Below are positions 3,610 to 15,825 of a stretch of 64,000 nt of DNA, one piece after another. The stretch is taken from NCBI RefSeq assembly GCF_041248615.1, contig NZ_CP158426.1; one strand, 5' to 3'. The notes beneath the pieces are model-generated. The model searched no databases. It was given only the letters and a program-made list of their open reading frames with translations, and had not been told where the DNA came from. The DNA is from Escherichia coli (lineage in GTDB: Bacteria > Pseudomonadota > Gammaproteobacteria > Enterobacterales > Enterobacteriaceae). Every line of letters begins with the position of its first letter. Position 1 is the stretch's first letter. A program made the position numbers and the translations under genes.

Positions 3610-5097
3610 ATGTGGTTTCACTTTCTGCAATTAAGGTCGGCTTTGAATATCTCCTCTGCTTTACGCCAGGTTGTTCACGGCACTCGCTGGCACGCTAAAC
3701 GCAAGAGCTACAAAGTGTTGTTCTGGCGCGAGATAACCCCGCTTGCTGTTCCTATCTTCATGGAGAACGCCTGTGTCCTGTTGATGGGTGTCCTGAGCAC
3801 TTTTCTGGTCAGCTGGCTGGGAAAAGATGCGATGGCCGGCGTGGGATTGGCGGACAGCTTCAATATGGTCATTATGGCATTTTTTGCGGCTATCGATCTT
3901 GGTACCACTGTCGTTGTGGCATTTAGTCTCGGTAAGCGGGATCGACGACGAGCGAGGGTGGCGACGCGGCAGTCATTGGTGATCATGACGTTGTTTGCCG
4001 TGCTGTTGGCAACGCTTATTCATCATTTTGGCGAACAAATTATTGATTTCGTTGCGGGTGATGCCACGACAGAAGTTAAAGCACTGGCGTTGACTTATCT
4101 GGAGCTGACGGTACTTAGTTATCCAGCAGCTGCCATCACTTTGATTGGTAGCGGGGCACTTCGTGGTGCAGGGAATACGAAAATACCGCTACTGATTAAC
4201 GGTAGCCTGAATATTCTTAATATTATTATTAGCGGCATATTGATTTACGGCCTTTTCTCCTGGCCGGGACTGGGATTTGTCGGGGCTGGGTTGGGGTTAA
4301 CCATTTCTCGTTATATTGGCGCAGTGGCAATTTTGTGGGTGCTGGCGATTGGTTTTAATCCTGCGCTAAGGATTTCGTTAAAGAGCTATTTTAAACCGCT
4401 GAATTTTAGCATTATCTGGGAAGTCATGGGGATTGGTATTCCAGCAAGTGTCGAATCAGTATTATTTACCAGTGGTCGGTTATTAACCCAAATGTTCGTT
4501 GCCGGGATGGGGACCAGTGTTATTGCCGGAAATTTTATCGCGTTTTCAATTGCGGCTCTTATCAACTTACCCGGAAGTGCGCTCGGCTCTGCTTCTACGA
4601 TCATTACAGGCCGAAGGTTGGGAGTAGGGCAGATAGCGCAAGCAGAGATTCAGTTGCGGCATGTGTTCTGGCTGTCCACTCTTGGATTAACGGCCATCGC
4701 CTGGCTAACGGCTCCCTTTGCCGGGGTTATGGCATCGTTTTACACCCAGGATCCACAGGTTAAACATGTCGTTGTGATTCTGATTTGGCTAAATGCTTTA
4801 TTTATGCCTATTTGGTCTGCCTCATGGGTGCTACCCGCTGGATTTAAGGGTGCTCGCGATGCACGTTACGCCATGTGGGTTTCTATGTTGAGCATGTGGG
4901 GTTGCCGGGTTGTAGTCGGTTATGTGCTGGGAATCATGCTTGGCTGGGGTGTGGTTGGTGTCTGGATGGGAATGTTTGCCGACTGGGCTGTGCGGGCCGT
5001 GCTGTTTTACTGGCGAATGGTTACTGGACGTTGGCTGTGGAAATATCCTCGATCTGAGCCGCAAAAGTGTGAAAAAAAGCCAATTGTGTCGGAATAA
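3610..5097 (+). CDS. yeeO: MATE-family efflux transporter YeeO
   Basis: ORF 3457..5097 is highly hydrophobic multi-pass membrane protein; the 5' extension overlaps tRNA asnU, so start placed at ATG 3610 (495 aa, MWFHFLQL...). Confidence 0.85.
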   Translation: MWFHFLQLRSALNISSALRQVVHGTRWHAKRKSYKVLFWREITPLAVPIFMENACVLLMGVLSTFLVSWLGKDAMAGVGLADSFNMVIMAFFAAIDLGTTVVVAFSLGKRDRRRARVATRQSLVIMTLFAVLLATLIHHFGEQIIDFVAGDATTEVKALALTYLELTVLSYPAAAITLIGSGALRGAGNTKIPLLINGSLNILNIIISGILIYGLFSWPGLGFVGAGLGLTISRYIGAVAILWVLAIGFNPALRISLKSYFKPLNFSIIWEVMGIGIPASVESVLFTSGRLLTQMFVAGMGTSVIAGNFIAFSIAALINLPGSALGSASTIITGRRLGVGQIAQAEIQLRHVFWLSTLGLTAIAWLTAPFAGVMASFYTQDPQVKHVVVILIWLNALFMPIWSASWVLPAGFKGARDARYAMWVSMLSMWGCRVVVGYVLGIMLGWGVVGVWMGMFADWAVRAVLFYWRMVTGRWLWKYPRSEPQKCEKKPIVSE

Positions 5098-5197
5098 ACG
5101 ACAAAGTGCAGATTATTTCAGCAAACGATTTCAAATTTAAAAAACAGGCTTTGACATTGTGGATGGGCATCGCTAATATTCGCCTCGTTCTCACGAT

Positions 5198-5273
5198 TCC
5201 TCTGTAGTTCAGTCGGTAGAACGGCGGACTGTTAATCCGTATGTCACTGGTTCGAGTCCAGTCAGAGGAGCCA
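5198..5273 (+). tRNA. asnW: tRNA-Asn (GUU anticodon); integration site of island 1
   Basis: Canonical 76-nt tRNA-Asn sequence on + strand, immediately followed by a P4-type integrase gene. Confidence 0.95.
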
Positions 5274-5434
5274 AATTCAAGTTTTCATGCTTATCTGTAC
5301 GTCTCTATTTGTTTACGATTCAGTAAGTTAGCGTGAAAATCCTTCCCGGTGCGTATCTGGTTTTCTCTCTGTATCGGGATAATTTGGTGGTCAGATCTGG
5401 GGTCAGTTTGGTTCGATTCTGGAGTGACCCCCAA

Positions 5435-6696
5435 ATGTCTTTAAACGATTCTAAAATCCGCAAGTTAAAACCCTCTTCCCGTCTGGTAAAACTCTCCGAC
5501 TCTCACGGTCTGTATCTGCTCGTCAATCCGGGCGGTTCACGCATCTGGTATCTCAAATATCGTTTCAACGGAAAAGAATCCAGAGTCAGTCTTGGCGCAT
5601 ACCCGCTTGTCTCACTGGCAGAAGCCAGGCAACAGCGCGACGGTATCCGTAAGTTACTGGCGCAGAATATCAACCCGGCGCAGCAGCGCATGGCGGAGAA
5701 AGCGGCCTGCTCCCCTGAAAAGTGCTTTAAGGCAGTGGCGCTGGCCTGGCACAAAACCAACAAAAAATGGTCGGCTGATTATGCCGCCCGTATTCTCGCC
5801 AGTATGGAAAACCATATCTTCCCGGCGATTGGTCATCTGCCAGTTGCCACTCTTAAAACGCAGGATTTACTGCTTTGTTGCGGGTTATCGAGGATAAAGG
5901 CTTTCTGGAAGTCGCGTCCCGAACCCGGCAGCAACTCAGCAACATCATGTGCTATGCCGTTCAGCAGGGGCTTACCGAAAGCAATCCGGCGCAGCATCTG
6001 GATGGCGTTGTCGCCTCACCCGTAAAGAATCACTACCCCGCGTTACTGCTGGAGCGGTTGCCCGAACTGCTTGGCCGCATCGGTGACTATCAGCAGGGCC
6101 GGGAGTTAACACGGCTGGCGGTGGTGCTGACGTTGCACCTGTTTATCCGTTCCAGCGAACTGCGTTTCGCCCGCTGGAGCGAGATCGATTTCAGGCACAA
6201 AATCTGGACCATCCCCGCCACCCGCGAGGCAATCGACAAAGTACGGTTTTCGGGGCGTGGCGCAAAAATACGTACCCCGCATATCGTGCCGCTCTCCCGC
6301 CAGGCGATTGCCATTCTGAAACAGATACAGGAGCTTTCCGGCCATCTGGATCTGGTGTTTCCCGGTGATCATAACCCGTACAAGCCAATGAGTGAAAACA
6401 CCACCAACCGGGCGCTACGCCTGATGGGGTATGATACGAAAACTGAAATCTGCGGGCATGGACTCAGGGCGATGGCCTGTAGCGCCCTGGTGGAGTCGGA
6501 GCTGTGGTCACGCGATACGGTGGAGCGGCAAATGAGCCACCAGGAGCGTAACAGCGTGCGGGCAGCCTATGTGCATAAAGCGGAGCATCTGGAGGCCAGA
6601 AAGGCCATGATGCAGTGGTGGTCGGATTATCTGGATGTGTGCCGCGAGGGGTATGTTGCGCCGTACATTTATGCCCGGCAGCATAAGGCAGCCTGA
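5435..6696 (+). pseudogene. P4-family tyrosine integrase, frameshifted near 5872
   Basis: N-terminal part (MSLNDSKIRKLKP...ATLKTQDLL) is in frame 2 (ORF 5333..6025); C-terminal part (LRVIEDKG...HGLRAM...Y) is in frame 1 (ORF 5875..6696); restoring one C at about 5872 (ctgcCtttg) would give a contiguous DLLPLLRVIEDKG integrase of about 420 aa. Confidence 0.8.
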
Positions 6697-6835
6697 ATCA
6701 GAAATAACGGAAATCATTAAAAATGTAAAAGCAGATCCTGATTGACCGGGATCTGCTTATTGTATTGAGAAGTATTACCATTTTTCTGTTATTATCAATC
6801 GGAAAGTATCTAAAAATATTTGGCCCCAAATAATT

Positions 6836-7260
6836 TTGGTGAAAACCAATCAATAAACCATTTATCAATAGGTAAGTACCGGAAATTATTCCAGTAGAAT
6901 ATTTTCAGGCGATTGCCTATTAATAAATACATTATTGATAGATAAGTGCCTTCTGTGATTTGTCCGCAAATCACAGAAGATGAAAACCTATCAATACGGG
7001 ATATTTTCACGGAAATACCAATTAATACTCCAGAATATCTCCTGACCATATACTCTGAAACCTGTAAGAACTGCATCAGATATTGAGAGACCATATAGAT
7101 ATAAGTCTGAAATTATTTTGTTTCCAATGATTTCAGGCGAAAACCTATCAATGCATCTGTTTTCAATAGGCAGCCACCTTCCGTGATTAACATGTTAATC
7201 ACGGAAGGTGAAAAGCTATCAATAATCGATATTTTCACGGAATTACCACTTAATACATCC
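6836..7260. repeat. AT-rich iteron-like array: 4 copies of GAAAA(C/G)C(T/A)ATCAAT plus two long palindromes
   Basis: Motif at 6841, 6981, 7140, 7209; palindrome tctgtgatttgtccgcaaatcacaga (6952..6977) and perfect palindrome ccttccgtgattaacatgttaatcacggaagg (7177..7208); repeated gatattttcacggaa(a/t)tacca blocks. Confidence 0.55.
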
Positions 7261-8033
7261 CAAAAAATGCGCCATAAAATACCGGGCAATCTTTCCTGAT
7301 ACACATTATCACTGCACCAGCTATACAGAGACAAAATAATCTGCACCAGCCCCTGTAAATCGGTTATTTGTGCCAGTGTCCCGCCGCTCTACCTGTTCAG
7401 GGTTGTGCCAGTTTCTGGCCCTTTGGTTTTCGGCCCTTTCCGGTCAGGCGCTGTTACCCTTATTGCCCCTTAACCTTTATGACCCTTTCCCTTTCTGACG
7501 CAACCAGTTTATTTTGAAATGCTCCATGACAGTCTGCACCAGACTGTATTTTCACCACAGGATAACGATCACAAAGTGCAAAAAAATAACATGAAGCACC
7601 GAAGATTGTTAATCTATATGTAGCAGGTAATGATGTCAAAAACTGTCGCAGCATTTTTTATAAAATTATGAGACATTCTGTGGGCATATAATATATGTCA
7701 CAAGATGCAGGAAAACAAAGAGAGAGTTTTCAGATATAATCCCGCGTTAGAATTAATGTGATGCCCCGGTGAATTTACATTTTAAAATTTCCCTGTCCCG
7801 TAATATCGGTAAAAACGATTGAAACACCAACTATTAATCGGGAACGTCTCGAGTGATTACAGGGTAATCACTATAATATCCCGGCAAACTATATTGGTTA
7901 AGCAGGAGAATCTGATCAGTTGATATTTATTCGTCATGCTGTAACGATATTTTCACAATATAAACCCGTTCGCCCCCTGCGCCAGATCCGGTACAGAGGG
8001 TACGATAAATCGCTGTCGTTACGCAGTAACGTA

Positions 8034-8650
8034 CTATTTTGCGACATTCATGAATTCAGTCATTCCTCCCTCCAGCGGTAGCCGTACACCTGTTTCACCC
8101 AGCGACCGCGACCGTCGCCATGACCCAGATCCGTCGCCGTCAGCGCCAGTGACTCCTTTTCGCTGAATCCCTGCGCCAGTATCCAGGACTGTCGTATAAC
8201 GGGGACGCCCGCCTTTGGTGCCAAATACCACTTTTAGCCGGGTTTCACCGCGGGAAATGGCTTTCAGCCACGTTTTCAGCGACTGTGAACTCTGTACCGC
8301 CTCCTGCGAACGCAGCCCCATCAGCCGCGCAATCTCCAGGCTGCTGCCAGCCCTGCGTCCTGAGTACGGGCTTTCTCCATCACCTGCCTGCGTCCAGCCT
8401 GTCTCAGCACGGCCCGCAACGCTGCCATTTCGTTTTGCAACGTTCGTAAACCAATATCCAGCTCCAGCCGTTCCTCAATGTAGCATTCGATATGGCGAAC
8501 CTTGATCTGCTCCACCCGCTGGATCTGGATATTCAGCGCCCGTAAATGTTCACTGAACCGTTTTGTAATATGGATACGGTCATTCACCGTTTTGAAGCTG
8601 CCGCCCGCTTTCTTCGCCAGCGCCTTCATTTCACTGCTTAATTTACTCAT
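8034..8650 (-). pseudogene. Degenerate tyrosine-recombinase (integrase) remnant
   Basis: ORF 8321..8650 resembles an integrase N-terminal SAM-like domain; the adjacent out-of-frame ORF 8034..8321 has a GTKGGRPRYTTVLD segment resembling the TGKGGK.R..P recombinase box; no intact catalytic C-terminus. Confidence 0.4.
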
Positions 8651-9566
8651 GAATCCCTCTGCAACAAAAACAAACAGTCTCCGGCGTGTGCTTTTTGGCT
8701 GCGCCAGAACGATACCTTTACGCCGGAGTGGTAGTTTGTTGAGGTTTAGGGAGTTTCAGGCTGTACGCAGTACAGACTGCCTGCGAAGCAGGAGTGTCTC
8801 CGGGGCTTCTTGCCCCCCTCGGTATCGATCTTTTTCTCCTTTACTCTTAGCTGACAGCGGCCCCAAAGGGCATGTCAGACGGCGGAAATATGGCGCAGGC
8901 CAGAACTGGCGCGGCTTGTGGCGGTGAGTTGTGCGGCGTCACTTTGCTTTTTCGCTGGCGCGACCAAAGTGACGCCTCGTCTGGTGCAGGGGGTAAACGT
9001 TACGTTTCTGGTGCAGGGTGACGGTCACGCGGCAGCAAAGCCTGACGGCAATGCAGGCCGCAGCCCGTCAATGTAAGGCGCTGGTTGTCAGCAGAAGATA
9101 AAACCCGGCAAAGCCAGAGTGTCAGCCCGTAAAGCCGGGTATCTGGTGCAGTGATGGTGTATATGTACGTCAGTCTCAGATGCAGGTATTTTTGCATCCC
9201 CGGCGTTTTCAGAGATCAACGCCGGTAAAGGATGCCATGCTGGCGAAGCCAGGCGCTTCTTTCAGACGTGAAGCGACAAAGGGACTGCCCGGAGGCAGTT
9301 TGTTGCAGGCGGGAGACTGCGCCATTATTTCTGGTGCAGGAAGGAAAAACTGTTTCCGGGTTTAAAAGATTGTTTGCTTACCTGGTGACGGAAAAACTGC
9401 CGCGCTTCGCTTGTCTTCTCCCGGCGCGCTGCCAGCAAAAGCAGGCAGCGCGCCGGGAGAGTCTGGTTTTACTGTAACAATGCGCCTGACGGTTCAGCCA
9501 TCAGGATCGGCGTTTATGCATGAGTCTTCCGGTACGGTTGCCCCGATCATCGATGTATCTGGACGG

Positions 9567-9755
9567 TCAGATAATTTCCGGTGATGTTTCCAGCGCATCC
9601 GCAATCAGTTTTTCGCCGCGCGGCCTGGAGCGGGTCAGCGCATTTGCCAGCGTGGAAGACGCCAGCCCGGCCCTGCGGGAAACCTCAGCCAGCGATGTTC
9701 CCTTTTTTCTCAGGCCCGCGATAATATCGGCGGGGTGCCAGTCGGGTTGCATCAT
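9567..9755 (-). CDS. Ner/Nlp-like small HTH DNA-binding protein
   Basis: 62-aa ORF with WHPADIIAGLRKKGTSLAEVSRRAGLASSTLANAL, closely resembling the Ner/Nlp family. Confidence 0.6.
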   Translation of the reverse strand: MMQPDWHPADIIAGLRKKGTSLAEVSRRAGLASSTLANALTRSRPRGEKLIADALETSPEII

Positions 9756-10213
9756 GCTGGCCTCCCGTCGATAACCTGTATGCCGTCAGCAGTACATATC
9801 CAGCGTGGGGCGTTCAGATTGGCGGCAAAATACCAGACCAGTTCGCACAGCAGCCCGGTCAGCGTGGTTTCGGTTTCCGGCAGCAGCACGTGGCCGTTCA
9901 GTATCTGCGTCAGCGCCAGGCAGTAATCGCAGAGTGATCCTGCATCAGGCTCAAAACCGGGTGAAACATCGGGAAGATCATTCGTAATAAACCCGTCAAT
10001 CAGATGTGGTGGGATCGGCTCGTTCAGCGTGGGCCGCAACAGTGCAAGACAGGTATTAAGCCTGCCACAGAGCGCCGTTTTCAGCGCCGGATCGCAGCAC
10101 TCGATGAGCGTTGTGGCAACGCGATCGCAGTACTCCGCCAGATCGGTGAAATCGGTAGCGGCACTAAAGGGAACAGCAAGTAAATTGCATTCAGAGGTGA
10201 GAGTAGTCGCCAT
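9752..10213 (-). CDS. Hypothetical protein (153 aa), 4-bp overlap with downstream Ner-like gene
   Basis: ORF only; overlapping stop/start with the Ner-like gene suggests an operon; no recognised domain. Confidence 0.35.
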   Translation of the reverse strand: MATTLTSECNLLAVPFSAATDFTDLAEYCDRVATTLIECCDPALKTALCGRLNTCLALLRPTLNEPIPPHLIDGFITNDLPDVSPGFEPDAGSLCDYCLALTQILNGHVLLPETETTLTGLLCELVWYFAANLNAPRWICTADGIQVIDGRPA

Positions 10214-10734
10214 AAGGCCGTCTACAGTGAGTGATAAATATTCCAGCCACTGGAGAGGCTAATCTCACGGGTGGTGGAACCGGACGGGGTTAGCCTTACC
10301 AGCCTCACTGACACTGGCGCGTCTTTCGACGCCCCCGCCCGATCCCGCCATTGAGATGAGACCGTGCGCGACACACAAATATTGTATCGTCAGTGAGGAT
10401 CTTCAGGAGGCTAATCCCGACGCCTGATTTTGCAGGCGCGGCGCAACAATACAATGTTCGGTAATTTTCAGCAAGAGGTTTAGCGGAAGCAGACGCACAG
10501 GAAAATACAATCACGCGATAAATATTAAATACAATTATATTTATATAAAATATATATTGAGCAATATGCAGACACTTTCCAGTAAATATCCTGTCAGTTA
10601 ATTCGTCCCGTTGATATCAGTCAAAAAAATAAATGTAAAAAGAGCGTATTTCGTTTCATACAGTAACGTTATTTATCATTTTGTCCGGTGTCGCCAGCAT
10701 CAGGCCAGATGAACCATAAAAAAGGATATCAGCG

Positions 10735-13700
10735 ATGAGCGGAAAACCGGCAGCACGTCAGGGCGATGCCACAATGAAAGGTGGCCCGATAGTCCAGGGG
10801 TCGGCAGGCGTGAGGATTGGCGCGCCAACCGGCGTGGCCTGTTCAGTGTGCCCCGGCGGATTCACTTCCGGTAACCCGGTGAATCCGCTGCTCGGTGCAA
10901 AAGTACAGCCCGGCGAAACCGATTTCGCGCTGCCCGGCCCGTTACCGTTCGTGCTCTCCCGCACCTACAGCAGCTACCGGACGAAAACCCCTGCGCCCGT
11001 CGGTATCTTCGGTCCTGGCTGGAAAGCACCCTTTGATATCCGCTTACAGATACGCGATAACGAACTGATACTCAATGATAACGGTGGCAGAAGCATTCAT
11101 TTTGAGCACCTGTTTCCCGGTGAGGATGGCTTCAGCCGCAGCGAATTATTCTGGCTGGTGCGCGGCGGCGTGGCGAAACTGAATGAAAGTCACCGTCTTG
11201 CCCCACTCTGGCAGGCTCTGCCGGAAGAACTCCGCATGAGTCCGCATATTTATCTGGCGACGAACAGTCCGCAGGGGCCGTGGTGGATACTCGGCTGGAG
11301 TGAGCGGGTACCGGGTGTGGATGAGGTGCTGCCTGCGCCATTGCCGCCGTACCGGGTGCTGACCGGCCTGGTGGACCGCTTCGGGCGTACCCTGACCTTC
11401 CGGCGTGAGGCAGTTGGCGAATTTACCGGGGAAATCACCGGCGTGACCGATGGCGCAGGCCGTCAGTTCCGCCTGGTGCTGACCACGCAGGCGCAGCGGG
11501 CGGAAGAGGCCCAGCAGCAGGCGGTTGCAGCCGGAGCAAAACGACCAGATATCCCGGTTTCATTGCCGGACTATACAGAATATGGCCGGGATAACGGCAT
11601 CCGCCTGTCAGCGGTGTGGCTGACGCATGACCCGGAATACCCGGAGAATTTACCTGCCGCGCCACTGGTGCGCTACGACTGGACGCCACGCGGTGAACTG
11701 GCGGCGGTGTATGACCGCAGCGGTACGCAGATGCGCCACTTTACTTACGATGATAAATACCGGGGCCGGATGGTGGCGCACCGTTACGCAGGCAGGCCGG
11801 AGATGCGTTACCGCTACGACGACATCGGGCGCGTGACGGAACAACGTAATCCGGCGGGTTTAAGCTACACCTATCAGTATGAGAAAAACCGCATCATCAT
11901 CACCGACAGCCTGAACCGGTGCGAGGTGCTGCATACAGAAGGCGAAGCCGGGCTGAAACGGGTGGTGAAAAAAGAGCACGCTGACGACAGCGTCACACAG
12001 AGTCAGTTCGATTCCATTGGCCGCCTTCAGTCACAGACGGATGCGGCAGGCCGGACGACAGAATACAGTCCGAATGTGGTGACGGGTCTCGTCACACGCA
12101 TCACCACGCCGGACGGCAGGAAATCGGAATTTTACTATAACAACCAGAACCAGTTAACCTCAGCATCCGGGCCTGACGGACTGGAAATGCGCAGGAAATA
12201 TGATGAGTACGGGCGTCTGACGCAGGAAACCGCTCGCAACGGCGATATCACCCGCTACAGTTATGATAATCCGCACAGTGAATTACCCTCTGCAACTGAA
12301 GATGCGACGGGTAGCCGCAAGCAGATGACGTGGAGCCGTTACGGGCAGTTACTGACTTTCACCGACTGCTCAGGCTACCAGACCCGTTATGAATACGACC
12401 GCTTTGGTCAGATGACGGCGGTCCACCGTGAGGAAGGTGTCAGTCTTTACCGCAGCTATGACAGCCGTGGTCAGTTAATCTCGGTGAAAGATACGCAGGG
12501 CCGTGAAACGCAGTATGAGTACAACGGTGCAGGCGACCTGACCGCCATTATCACGCCAGACGACAACAGAAGCGAGACACAGTACGATGCGTGGGGAAAG
12601 GCCGTCAGTACCACGCAGGGCGGGCTGACGCGCAGCATGGAATACGACGTTGCCGGACGTGTCATCAGCCTGACCAACGAGAACGGCTGTCACAGCGACT
12701 TCAGTTACGATGTGCTCGACCGCCTGATACAGCAGAGCGGCTTTGACGGGCGGACGCAACGTTACCGTTACGACCTGACCGGGAAACTCACGCAGAACGA
12801 GGATGAGGGGCTTGTCACCCTCTGGCACTACGACGAATCGGACCGTATCACACACCGCACGGTGAACGGCGAACCGGCAGAGCAGTGGCGGTATAACGCC
12901 CACGGCTGGCTGAAAGAAATCAGCCACCTGAGCGAAGGTCACCGGGTGGCGGTGCATTACGGCTATAACCGTAAGGGACGTCTCACCGGCGAGCGCCAGA
13001 CGGTGCATAACCCGGAGACGGGGGAACTGCTCTGGCTGCATGAGACAAAACACGCCTACAACGAACAGGGTCTGGCAAACCGCGTCACGCCGGACTGCCT
13101 GCCTGCTGTGGAGTGGCTGACCTACGGCAGCGGTTACCTGGCGGGGATGAAGCTGGGCGACACGCCGCTGCTGGAGTACGCGCGCGACCGCCTGCACAGA
13201 GAAACGGTGCGCAGCTTTGGCAGCATGGCAGGCAGTAATGCCGCATACGAACTGACCAGCACATACACCCCCGCAGGCCAGTTACAGAGCCAGCACCTGA
13301 ACAGCCTGGTGTATGACCGTGACTATGGGTGGAATGACAACGGCGACCTGGTGCGCATCAGCGGCCCGCGACAGACGCGGGAATACGGCTACAGCGCCAC
13401 GGGCAGGCTGGCGAGTGTGCGCACCCTCGCACCGGACCTGGACATCCGCATCCCGTATGCCACGGACCCGGCGGGCAACCGGCTGCCGGACCCGGAGCTG
13501 CACCCGGACAGTACACTCACAGTGTGGCCGGATAACCGCATCGCGGAGGATGCGCACTATGTCTACCGCCACGATGAATACGGCAGGCTGACGGAGAAGA
13601 CGGACCGCATCCCGGCGGGTGTGATACGGACGGACGACGAGCGGACCCACCACTACCACTACGACAGCCAGCACCGCCTGGTGTTCTACACGCGGATACA

Positions 13701-15521: not shown

Positions 15522-15809
15522 TAATTATATATAATTACTCGCACAGAGTTACAGTATTGCAAGAAATATATCTAGCATATAAAGTCGCCGCCAGTAAAGA
15601 TAAAGTACTGTGTAATCCTTCCTCCCATATAGGGGTAAAAACTTAGCATCCAGTGCCCTCGACTTAATTTTTAGTATTTTCTCTGTGAAGTGACACTTCG
15701 TAGGATTCAGTTCATGTTTACCAGAAAAAAGGTGGTCATTCTGGTGGTCTTGACAATCTCGATTTTTTGTTTTAGCTTTCCAATCAGCCAATTAATGGCT
15801 ACGGCGATC

Positions 15810-15825
15810 CCAGTCAGAGGAGCCA
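15810..15825 (+). repeat. 16-bp direct repeat of tRNA-Asn 3' end (distal att boundary of asnW island)
   Basis: ccagtcagaggagcca is identical to the last 16 nt of asnW (5258..5273); preceded by tacggcgatc, which is also found at the asnT-side boundary (revcomp of 30131..30140). Confidence 0.75.

Follow-up and report, generated by a model that had tools for sequence, protein, structure and literature searches.

Genes and features at the locus

The window analysed here is a 64-kb stretch of Escherichia coli DNA that includes an island of 10.5 kb at tRNA-Asn (asnW). Within the island, an array of palindromes and repeats occupies the 3'-to-3' spacer between a frameshifted P4-type integrase gene and a truncated PF12835 gene, in agreement with a preliminary description which had located it next to a broken integrase. 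The RefSeq annotation of an identical locus shows the P4-type tyrosine integrase (5435..6696, + strand) as frameshifted, and a Pfam scan of an intact allele identifies the domains Arm-DNA-bind_3, Phage_int_M and Phage_integrase. Facing it on the - strand, the gene with PF12835 (Integrase_1) and PF12834 (8060..8651) is of the MpsA/MOB_M relaxase class; truncated and frameshifted, it has a 294-nt gap relative to intact alleles, the intact form having 294 aa in allele L005, from E. coli 2015C-3107 (NZ_CP027317.1, at about 994.9-998.7 kb), whose integrase gene is intact as well. In most E. coli alleles inspected, either the integrase or the relaxase-type gene is pseudogenised. PF12835 serves as an MpsA-like signature (PMC10484663). 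Since the neighbour carries this signature of tyrosine-recombinase-type relaxases (MpsA/MOB_M), the element is an integrative mobilisable element and not a P4-like satellite, in contrast to the earlier suggestion of a satellite-phage or plasmid-like element.

The region upstream of the relaxase-type gene (8652-9560) includes, just upstream of that gene, the EFASI RNA (8706..8833, - strand; Rfam score of 100.8 bits against a gathering score of 51.2), which is found at the same position in all related loci. Next to it lies a conserved GC-rich region (8834-9094), the counterpart here of the SGI1 oriT region. A small 'hypothetical protein' annotated at 8918-9076 is domain-free and looks spurious. 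The conserved module comprises c4/isrK RNAs, EFASI, the relaxase-type gene, a GGCCCTTT-repeat segment, a terminator, the integrase and the tRNA.

Two non-coding pieces of this module delimit the array. On the left, the Escherichia-specific insert begins at a hairpin terminator (6729..6758) common to the convergent integrase and relaxase-type genes; it was found by the terminator scan of the + strand, inspection of the sequence showed its T-run on the - strand, and it is kept in all genera compared, where it lies about 150 bp from the stop of the relaxase-type gene. It is the only hairpin in the region that qualifies as a Rho-independent terminator, P1 and P2 (see below) being without following T-runs. 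The right border is the GGCCCTTT-repeat segment (7402..7478), the sole part of the integrase-relaxase spacer common to other genera, with 79-86% identity to Klebsiella, Cedecea, Salmonella arizonae, Erwinia and Pseudocitrobacter. Beyond it, a second Escherichia-specific segment (7480-8059) contains the small palindrome P3 (7851..7873, AGTGATTAC agg GTAATCACT), whose half-site GTGATTA is as in P2. A promoter-like site on the - strand (7901..7873) abuts P3.

Architecture of the array

The box GAAAASCWATCAAT occurs four times, as previously described; the exact copies found by motif search, all on the + strand, start at 6841, 6982, 7139 and 7210, irregularly spaced (141, 157 and 71 bp), and no further exact copy exists within the 64 kb, in which up to two mismatches give 8 matches against 2.7 expected. 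The near-duplicate blocks hold up as well: 6898-7028 and 7126-7256, of 131 nt each, are 73% identical and lie 228 bp apart, and a second pair (6819-6872 and 7117-7170, 54 nt) is 70% identical. Both strong palindromes are present, but the sizes first given, 26 and 32 bp, were too small: P1 (6950-6979) measures 30 bp, with 13-bp arms and a 4-bp centre, and P2 (7175-7210) is a perfect palindrome of 36 bp. Their proposed gtgatt...aatcac core is indeed GTGATT-N8-AATCAC in both, and the same half-site is found in P1, P2 and P3 at near-equal spacing (8, 8 and 7 bp). The whole window has five perfect palindromes with arms of at least 11 bp, two of them in the array, and locally composition-matched shuffles contain none in 19 of 20 trials and one in the remaining trial. 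The stretch is also AT-rich as stated, with a GC content of 0.335 over 6801-7200 against 0.52 upstream. Overlooked at first were the palindrome P0 (6812-6837), a quasi-palindrome at 6849-6939, the related P3 (7851-7873, GTGATTAcagGGTAATCAC), and the inverted repeat GTGAAAA-N17-TTTTCAC, which follows each main palindrome on its right-hand side. A role of the boxes as arm-type sites of the integrase was considered and rejected: the P4-arm-like (TGGGGTCA-like) sites are at ~5390-5435, by attL, and are unrelated to the boxes.

From left to right, the array starts with a degenerate unit, unit 0 (6789..6928, + strand; covariance model R1, 37.5 bits, E = 3e-5), which contains TATCAAT at 6793, P0 at 6812-6837 (AAAAATATTTGG cc CCAAATAATTTT) and the box GGTGAAAACCAATCAAT at 6838-6854. 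It overlaps a tail-to-tail quasi-palindrome (6849..6939, centre 6894), recovered by inverted-repeat search and by folding, whose left arm reads ATCAAT / TATCAATAGG and whose right arm reads CCTATTAATA / ATTGAT; symmetry is perfect only close to the centres and decays outward, to 77% complementarity over the 43-nt arms here, and this pairing is loosely kept among alleles (helix 3, with 89% of cells paired and numerous pairs broken). Unit 1 (6929..7032, + strand; R1, 119.6 bits) has the order TTGATAG, P1, ATGAAAACCTATCAATA, GGGATATTTTCACGGAA, TACCAATTAATAC, and 9 of the 100 columns in 6931-7030 are variable, against 22% overall. A further tail-to-tail quasi-palindrome (7095..7148, centre near 7121; helix 6), with 23-nt arms that are 74% complementary, has a right arm ending in the third box copy (7139-7152). 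In unit 2 (7157..7260, + strand; R1, 123.6 bits) the order is TTCAATAGG, P2, GGTGAAAAGCTATCAATAATCGATATTTTCACGG (7206-7240, a quasi-palindrome in its own right) and TTACCACTTAATAC. The model R1 does not detect P3 as a unit.

Each unit is a quasi-palindrome of roughly 100-170 bp, with a central palindrome of core T(G/T)ATT-N8-AAT(C/A)A, outer arms that are variable yet complementary, TATCAA boxes placed symmetrically on the palindrome flanks and, after the palindrome, GTGAAAA-N17-TTTTCAC. The symmetry centres fall at 6824.5, 6894, 6964.5, 7121.5 and 7192.5; a module of ~70 bp is repeated in alternating orientation, so that every junction is palindromic. The heptad WATCAMN is present in 11 copies against 2.7 expected (a number attained in none of 500 shuffles), in both orientations and symmetrically about the palindromes. 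Folded as single-stranded DNA, either strand of the array is far more stable than its shuffles (z = -7.9 and -8.2).

Coding potential

The open reading frames predicted across the array had been considered spurious, and the alleles bear this out: across 24 of them, every ORF is interrupted by indels, which measure 14, 8 and 1-2 nt. Variable sites lack a 3-base periodicity (codon phases 23/16/18 and 13/12/17), and the 94-aa ORF has homologues in E. coli and Shigella only, with lengths between 63 and 126 aa and devoid of Pfam domains. A coding gene or a pseudogene relic is ruled out by these frame-breaking indels, by the absent periodicity and by the species-limited homologues of variable length. 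The array should not be annotated as protein-coding, as it is in some RefSeq records; it is a cis element within an integrative mobilisable element, non-coding and specific to its lineage.

Distribution

The same module is found in Klebsiella, Cedecea, Erwinia, Salmonella arizonae and Pseudocitrobacter, where the spacer is only ~200 bp long. The array is absent from seven loci in six other genera (Klebsiella indica, Cedecea, Erwinia, Salmonella arizonae, Serratia and Pseudocitrobacter), in which the relaxase-type gene is 63-77% identical at the protein level; its spot is occupied by unrelated cargo ORFs in Serratia (L012) and in one Cedecea locus (L015), and by nothing in the remaining genera. 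In E. coli, the array family was found in 460 of 5,426 genomes and at one kind of locus only. To judge from these sequences, the array is an Escherichia-only insertion with one to three units per strain.

Similar sequences were sought, and not found, in 72,556 plasmids, 50,697 phages and IMG/VR. Distant-mode blastn at E <= 10, queried with the entire spacer or with individual units, gave chance matches only among plasmids (including PLSDB) and phages, and a pattern scan of IMG/VR had no match. Likewise, the unit covariance model revealed no diverged units in the other genera, the plasmid relatives or P4; palindrome arrays sought downstream of plasmid-borne relatives of the gene were not found, STAXI being present there instead; and Rfam, at E <= 1, returned just a chance-level microRNA match over P1 (E = 0.3). 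The array as operator of the Ner-like HTH_35 protein is a rejected candidate: the two do not co-occur, the array being alone in L005, L007 and L008 and the gene alone in five other genera.

Variation and symmetry among alleles

In the gapless register of 15 distinct units, 7 of the 13 palindrome pairs have changed on both arms, and 97% of cells are complementary; the number of pairs so changed is 2.8 +/- 0.8 in shuffles, none of 500 attaining 7, and at most 2 in slid controls. Over the full alignment of 24 alleles, nine pairs are altered on both sides, as compared with 3.2 in shuffles. One arm pair of P2 goes from G-C through G-T (four alleles) to A-T (L028), and the P2 centre has changed symmetrically from ACATGT to ACGCGT in L004. 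Three unrelated arm sequences (P1-, P2- and L009-type) have in common the position of the centre and the core TNATT...AATNA, the boxes being conserved across the three types too. The slot of P0 holds a different palindrome, AAAATTATTCACyGGTGAATAATTTT, in L007, L009 and L011. P2 is mismatched in 8 of 20 alleles, and wobble-type mismatches number 14 G-T against 7 A-C, a count in which the choice of pairs is biased towards the + strand.

The rate of change is uneven. In 19 aligned multi-unit alleles, 22% of columns vary overall against 6-9% in boxes and palindromes, and the P1 arms (26 nt) are invariant. The multi-unit alleles that differ from the window at the integrase (L002, L003, L005 and L007) diverge from it by 3-6% in the unit cores, by mostly 8-21% in the flanking non-coding DNA and by 7-12% at the fastest integrase codon position; on this comparison, unit cores appear to diverge about half as fast as the flanks.

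Origin, partition site or origin of transfer

The region had been thought to look like an origin or a partition site. An iteron-type origin of the P4 ori/crr kind, or a centromere for the partition of a satellite or plasmid-like element, would suit an AT-rich stretch with repeated boxes and a P4-type integrase in the same element; moreover, P4 crr has two 120-bp repeats, to which the pair of ~130-bp direct repeats seen here bears a superficial resemblance. P4 iterons are of type-1 octamer TGTTCACC, bound by the alpha primase-helicase; similar octamers occur in the array in both orientations, TTTTCAC(C/G) and GGTGAAAA being 1-2 mismatches off the type-1 repeats, and the L009-type palindrome contains TATTCACC, which is identical to one of the variants in P4 crr. 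Yet only five such octamers (1-2 mismatches) are found in 6800-7600, and the array is dominated by motifs other than P4 iterons, namely TATCAAT and the palindromes built on GTGATT. Smith-Waterman comparison with P4 4200-4640 and 9086-9600, on both strands, gave no significant alignment, with scores of 18-24 against shuffle means of ~21 and 32-200 of 200 shuffles scoring as high. P4 crr is situated between alpha and attP, not downstream of int, and orf153 is unrelated to P4 ORF151. No alpha-primase or other primase-helicase, Rep, ParA or ParB gene is encoded in any of the ~20 island versions or in the other genera, no DnaA box exists within one mismatch, and the plasmid and phage collections contain no counterpart beyond chance-level matches. 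A Rep gene, regular iterons of 17-22 bp and DnaA boxes, by which an iteron-type plasmid origin is recognised, are thus all wanting, and an origin or centromere is a highly improbable explanation.

For relaxases of the MpsA/MOB_M type, the origin of transfer is expected upstream of the relaxase gene, within the first large intergenic region, as in SGI1, in pIGRK and in the search method of the Rocha lab. The array lies downstream of the relaxase-type gene and is not conserved together with it, as the array-less loci of the six other genera indicate.

Comparison with known systems

Among known elements, STAXI (RF01728) offers a close parallel: non-coding structured units, two or three in tandem, by a PF12835-type 'integrase' gene, with EFASI upstream and a c4 RNA nearby at both loci. 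STAXI is known near 'XerDC-type integrase', ssb and antirestriction genes and c4 RNAs. In plasmid relatives of the relaxase-type gene, STAXI lies upstream, and in a Pantoea plasmid (L058) it also lies 52 nt downstream of the gene, which is the slot of the array here. However, the STAXI covariance model has no match in 5000-11000 at E <= 1, although it finds STAXI readily in L058 and L059, and STAXI units are GC-balanced pseudoknots with UUCG loops, unlike the AT-rich, Escherichia-only array units of palindromes and boxes.

The SGI1 module (oriT, sgm-sRNA, mpsA, mpsB) is similar in that the neighbouring gene belongs to the Pfam family that serves as the MpsA-like signature, that a structured sRNA (EFASI here, sgm-sRNA there) separates the gene from a GC-rich inverted-repeat region, and that the SGI1 oriT is itself an inverted-repeat array, a likeness drawn from its description. 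It differs in that the SGI1 oriT, of 125 bp, is GC-rich and upstream of mpsA, whereas the array is AT-rich, follows the relaxase-type gene and is missing in most relatives, and in that the E. coli island has no mpsB equivalent. Single-strand initiation sites provide a further analogy. The ssi of pIGRK, predicted just downstream of the MOB_M gene mobK (PMC8152469), is hairpin-rich non-coding DNA right after a relaxase gene, in a small mobilisable element without its own primase. No common sequence links such ssi and sso sites to the array. An ssi is defined functionally, by the priming of complementary-strand synthesis. The sso of ICEBs1 is located downstream of nicK. The known ssi elements are single-copy, not one to three alternating inverted modules. 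REP/BIME sequences, finally, share palindromic units in alternating orientation gathered between convergent genes; REPs are GC-rich, ~35 nt long and dispersed in hundreds of copies, in contrast to an AT-rich array at a single kind of locus.

What the array may be

The reading favoured here, and only tentatively, is that the array serves the mobilisation module as an accessory DNA site in hairpin or cruciform form. Its palindromes would extrude as hairpins or cruciforms when the DNA of the element is single-stranded or negatively supercoiled, presumably on the occasion of transfer driven by a MOB_M-type relaxase or of rolling-circle copying of the excised island, and the conserved core and boxes might then be read by a protein on the extruded structure. 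The array would act as a single-strand initiation or priming signal, or as a secondary relaxosome site, and would be neither the primary oriT nor a vegetative replication origin nor a coding region. This is consistent with its non-coding nature, with its position in the 3'-to-3' spacer adjoining a MOB_M-type gene, with its folding as single-stranded DNA (a stable structure near transfer genes, as looked for in ssi and sso sites), with the changes on both arms and with the slow unit cores. The discoverers of STAXI, too, considered that it may act as single-stranded DNA (PMC2864571). On the other side, the experimentally mapped oriT of SGI1 is upstream of mpsA and GC-rich, the mobility genes are decayed in most alleles, and P2 has mismatches in two fifths of those compared; no candidate for a protein binding the array was identified among the island genes; and, the array being missing from the same module in other genera, transfer there evidently proceeds independently of it. 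Spacer-less perfect palindromes are equally typical of duplex sites for dimeric proteins, which counts against a hairpin site. A bolder version, distinctly unlikely, would make the array a hairpin-based cis site of a new kind, read by MOB_M relaxases or helpers: an alternative or secondary transfer, termination or priming site acquired by Escherichia elements, with relaxase-mediated recombination between units setting their copy number.

The palindrome symmetry, even the change at the centre of P2 in L004, could be maintained free of selection, via hairpin-templated repair or template switching. A functionless relic is to be weighed against the accessory site, as a possible though doubtful account: an AT-rich insert at a recurrent cargo spot, expanded by local inverted and tandem duplication, its symmetry maintained by hairpin-templated correction (quasi-palindrome template switching) and its unit number drifting by slippage. 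Such a history would suit an Escherichia-only array at a spot taken by unrelated cargo in Serratia and Cedecea, a unit number varying from 1 to 3, a deletion in L010 whose junction is inside a short identity block common to the boxes, decaying neighbour mobility genes, symmetry that fades outward from the centres with many broken pairs in helix 3, and searches that yielded no partner protein, known RNA family or homologue elsewhere. It fits less well with unit cores that are roughly twofold slower than both the adjacent non-coding DNA and the fastest integrase codon position, with P1 arms unchanged in all 19 multi-unit alleles amid so many variable columns, and with a core and boxes kept across three otherwise unrelated palindrome types.

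Those conserved parts might instead be bound as duplex, in line with the multi-operator control region that the preliminary description had named as one option. A dimeric protein of the host, the helper or the island, on GTGATT-N8-AATCAC and WATCAAT boxes, could keep the convergent integrase and relaxase-type genes silent or insulated, or the array could be a centromere-like site for the partition system of a helper; SGI1 is reported to hijack the parABS system of its helper (PMC10954446). The half-site common to P1, P2 and P3, the excess of WATCAMN with its symmetry around the palindromes, and the change at the exact centre of P2 in L004, which suits symmetry at the DNA level better than a hairpin loop, all point this way. 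Nonetheless an operator or nucleoprotein array seems rather improbable, given that HTH_35 and other island regulators are missing from array-bearing L005, L007 and L008 and that island regulators are present in genera without the array. No PLSDB plasmid site resembles it even at E = 10, the outer arms differ by unit and are still self-complementary, which the specificity of one protein fails to explain, promoter-like sites score only 9/12 and are no commoner than in shuffles, no terminator-like site lies inside, and neither an exact IHF site nor a DnaA box was found. It is unlikely, too, that the array works as RNA, transcribed as a long 3' UTR of the relaxase-type mRNA (to the shared terminator) or as small RNAs of its own, its hairpins having a stabilising or processing role that would be analogous to that of tandem STAXI repeats. 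No terminator-like site on the - strand intervenes between the relaxase-type stop and the shared terminator, the P2 arm pair would read G-C, G-U and A-U along its path, and related plasmid loci carry STAXI, as two or three tandem structured repeats, downstream of the gene; EFASI and STAXI have, besides, been detected by RT-qPCR in E. coli vesicle preparations (PMC12370729). Still, the array matches no Rfam family beyond the chance microRNA hit, no unit has a convincing promoter and terminator pair of its own, the spacer-less P2 has central bases that co-vary, neither of which a hairpin loop needs, the structure is equally good on both strands, and the AT-rich stems are unlike typical stabiliser hairpins.

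Significance

A recent report describes MOB_M relaxases as the most frequent kind on the chromosomes of several pathogens, where they nearly always adjoin an integrase (bioRxiv 10.64898/2026.01.13.699239), and their cis-acting DNA or RNA requirements are known for just three elements. In Escherichia, a structured palindrome array has been added to a conserved module of this class. If its role in DNA processing is true, the array would be an accessory signal of a poorly understood transfer system and may offer a handle on relaxase recognition; if it is a relic, it would represent a clean natural case of how palindromes are maintained, and how the number of units drifts, in a spacer devoid of genes.

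Genomic context and class of the element

In the asn-tRNA region of E. coli, which in the window reads ldtA, asnV, nac, cbl, asnU, yeeO, asnW, yeeN, asnW is the insertion point of a 10.5-kb island bounded by direct repeats of the tRNA-Asn 3' end (5253-5273 and 15805-15825; 10.55 kb). Reading from the tRNA, the island comprises a frameshifted P4-type integrase (5435-6696, plus strand), a 1.36-kb stretch without annotated gene (6697-8059) that contains the AT-rich array of palindromes and boxes, a truncated relaxase-type gene (8060-8651, minus strand), the EFASI RNA (8706-8833, minus strand), a winged-helix HTH_35 gene and one further ORF, a c4-type antisense RNA with isrK-like elements (10267-10452, minus strand) and, listed last, an Rhs toxin gene, which together with a TPR protein forms the cargo. 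At 10267-10452 the C4 antisense RNA, an a1/b1 target motif and the isrK-like element make up a P1/P7-type immunity RNA module; it precedes orf153 and the HTH_35 gene, an order kept in other genera. In other strains the left-end module stands at the head of type VI secretion islands or of islands adjacent to yeeJ, the sites being asnT, asnU, asnV, asnW or aspV.

The intact form of the relaxase-type gene, found in other strains, encodes 294 aa with Pfam domains PF12834 and PF12835, the latter serving in one study as the signature of MpsA-like "DTR-like integrases"; MpsA, encoded by Salmonella genomic island 1 (SGI1), is an atypical relaxase from the tyrosine-recombinase family (PMC10484663). According to a 2026 preprint, MOB_M relaxases are the commonest among chromosomal relaxases, 96% of them adjoin an integrase, and they occur with MPF_G systems or in relaxase-only mobilisable islands (bioRxiv 10.64898/2026.01.13.699239). 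Consistent with the MPF_G association, a Pantoea plasmid encoding a 47%-identical protein is typed MPF_G without a recognised relaxase. Judged by this PF12835/MOB_M-type gene and its known associations, the element is an integrative mobilisable element and not a P4-like satellite; the alpha, sid, delta and psu genes are all missing. As for orf153, it proved unrelated to P4 ORF151.

Architecture of the array

The repeats and palindromes described previously were all recovered on re-examination of the window. In a motif search, the box repeat GAAAASCWATCAAT gave four exact matches and none elsewhere in the 64 kb, and two near-duplicate blocks (6898-7028 and 7126-7256) share 73% identity over 131 nt. 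Palindrome P1 (6950-6979) has 13-bp arms about a 4-bp centre, and P2 (7175-7210) is perfectly symmetric over 36 bp; the window has only five perfect palindromes whose arms reach 11 bp or more, against essentially none in shuffles. Missed at first were a further palindrome, P0 (6812-6837), a pair of long tail-to-tail quasi-palindromes (6849-6939 and 7095-7148), a GTGAAAA-N17-TTTTCAC inverted repeat to the right of each main palindrome, and a small related palindrome, P3 (7851-7873, AGTGATTACaggGTAATCACT). Since the symmetry centres are spaced in approximately 70-bp steps, and the covariance model of the unit also matches the opposite strand in mirrored register (about 50 bits), the array is best described as a module of some 70 bp in alternating orientation, which makes each unit a quasi-palindrome of roughly 100-170 bp.

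P3 lies directly downstream of a minus-strand promoter-like site, TTAACC-17-TATTAT, the two together spanning 7851-7901, and a better-scoring one, TTGACA-17-TAGATT, lies at 7639-7611 on the same strand; no convincing downstream gene was identified for either. A second palindrome family, CGTTACnnnGTAACG, adjoins the stop codon of the relaxase-type gene (8017-8031), and is represented once in the window, twice in the aspV-type island (L009, 4658-4737) and four times in E. albertii (L011, 2924-3363).

Non-coding status, possible constraint and symmetry

The earlier suspicion that the ORFs predicted here are spurious is borne out by 24 distinct alleles, drawn from 9 E. coli genomes, E. whittamii and 38 metagenome contigs, in which indels of 14, 8 and 1-2 nt fall inside every ORF. 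Codon periodicity is absent among the variable sites, the ORFs have no match in Pfam, and in a search of 5.8 billion proteins relatives of the 94-aa ORF were limited to E. coli and Shigella (63-126 aa, no domain). In some genomes RefSeq places a "hypothetical protein" across the array (e.g. WP_180192641.1 of E. coli O145 RM9873-C1, locus L003, 6130-6429, minus strand), a gene call that is judged spurious.

Across the 19 multi-unit alleles compared, the share of variable columns is 22% overall but only 6-9% in boxes, P1 and P2, as against 24-43% in the outer flanks, the P1 arms being invariant. In those multi-unit alleles that differ from the window at the integrase, the unit cores show a pairwise difference of 3-6% from the window, neighbouring non-coding DNA mostly 8-21%, and the fastest integrase codon position 7-12%. 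In a gapless alignment of 15 distinct units, 7 of 13 palindrome pairs have changed on both arms while 97% of cells are still complementary; both-arm changes affect 2.8 pairs in shuffled controls and at most 2 in slid ones. One P2 arm pair passes from G-C through G-T (L007 group) to A-T (L028), the P2 centre ACATGT reads ACGCGT in L004, and a single palindrome slot holds three unrelated arm sequences sharing the core TNATT-N8-AATNA only; the symmetry of P2 itself is incomplete in 8 of 20 alleles. This persistence of symmetry through change could reflect selection, either for the formation of hairpins or cruciforms or for a protein site that is symmetric; it would also fit hairpin-templated mutation, a bias for which quasi-palindromes are known.

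Distribution and the integrase-relaxase spacer

Of 5,426 complete E. coli genomes, 460 contain array-like sequences, which never occur on plasmids and in every inspected locus have the PF12835 gene on one side and an integrase at tRNA-Asn or tRNA-Asp on the other. A protein-guided scan beyond Escherichia (one genome per species) recovered the whole module, in the order c4/isrK, orf153, HTH_35, EFASI, PF12835 gene, terminator, integrase, tRNA-Asn, in Klebsiella indica, Cedecea colo, Erwinia mallotivora, Salmonella arizonae, Serratia marcescens, Pseudocitrobacter and one further enterobacterium. There the spacer measures only about 200 bp and consists of a common hairpin terminator, 1-3 CTGCGCCAG motifs and a GGCCCTTT-repeat segment (window 7402-7478); on this comparison, Escherichia alone has added the array (approximately 6760-7400) and a second segment (7480-8059). 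Matches to the unit covariance model are confined to Escherichia loci. The number of units runs from one (L004, E. albertii and the aspV-type island) up to two and a degenerate third (the window).

At the array's point, Serratia marcescens (L012, ~5880-6600) and Cedecea colo (L015, ~5880-6870) carry unrelated small cargo genes, and the spacer appears to be a place where insertions recur. The Cedecea insert, with a P-loop ATPase-like ORF, has on either side a 23-nt direct repeat, which takes in the 3' half of the terminator. The GGCCCTTT-repeat segment is the sole non-coding part of the spacer conserved across genera, with an identity (79-86%) on a par with that of the flanking genes, which suggests a cis-acting site or a 3'-UTR element of the relaxase-type gene.

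Possible roles of the array

An origin or partition site, as first proposed, is very improbable: an initiator gene is lacking and, although P4 crr is built from two direct repeats of 120 bp carrying octamer iterons, to which some array octamers are near-matches, local alignment with P4 ori/crr is no better than with shuffled sequence, and the position of crr/ori within P4 differs from that of the array. Scans of the array for DnaA boxes, with up to one mismatch allowed, and for exact IHF sites were negative, and plasmid and phage collections, IMG/VR and Rfam yielded nothing. Sites resembling P4 integrase arm repeats adjoin attL and are unrelated to the boxes.

It is possible, tentatively, that the array serves the mobilisation module as an accessory DNA site of hairpin or cruciform type, whose maintained palindromes would be used as hairpins by the transfer machinery, every step between being one that I infer. 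A functionless inverted-duplication relic is a little less probable; hairpin-templated mutation would account for its symmetry, and the low variability of boxes, P1 and P2 has to be set beside it. A duplex operator or nucleoprotein array, for which a symmetric protein site would be expected, is rather unlikely, and an RNA-level element more doubtful still. The Ner-like HTH_35 protein was discarded as a partner, its gene and the array failing to co-occur across loci.

Comparison with mobilisation modules

Structured elements behind a gene of this kind have two precedents. In pIGRK, a single-strand initiation site is predicted just downstream of mobK (PMC8152469), and in the Pantoea plasmid the homologous gene is followed after 52 nt by a STAXI motif. 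For STAXI, whose structured repeats stand in tandem, the discoverers considered single-stranded DNA action possible (PMC2864571); the array does not match the STAXI covariance model, the likeness being confined to format and position. STAXI flanks plasmid-borne relaxase-type relatives in Pantoea (L058, 2152-2302 and 3940-4088) and Klebsiella (L059, 2160-2317), upstream of EFASI and, in one plasmid, also just downstream of the gene.

A 9-10-nt motif occurs as TCTGGTGCAG upstream of the relaxase-type gene (8981, 9008, 9143, 9331) and, in opposite orientation, as CTGCAYCAG downstream (7071, 7312, 7341, 7534, 7977). Of its 18 copies in the window, 14 lie within 5200-10800, and the CTGCGCCAG copies in the short spacers of other genera are related to it. 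The motif may be bound by the relaxase or by an accessory protein.

The order in SGI1 is oriT, sgm-sRNA, mpsA, mpsB, its oriT being a GC-rich, 125-bp inverted-repeat array. EFASI occupies the slot that the essential sgm-sRNA holds there, between oriT and mpsA: in 14 of 14 loci, on chromosomes and two plasmids (L058, 2730-2880; L059, 2722-2871), it shares its strand with the PF12835 gene and precedes it by approximately 55-110 nt. By analogy, EFASI may be the counterpart of this RNA in mobilisation, and what its name calls "integrases" may really be relaxases. The conserved GC-rich region beyond EFASI (8834-9094), and not the array, is the natural candidate for the primary oriT.
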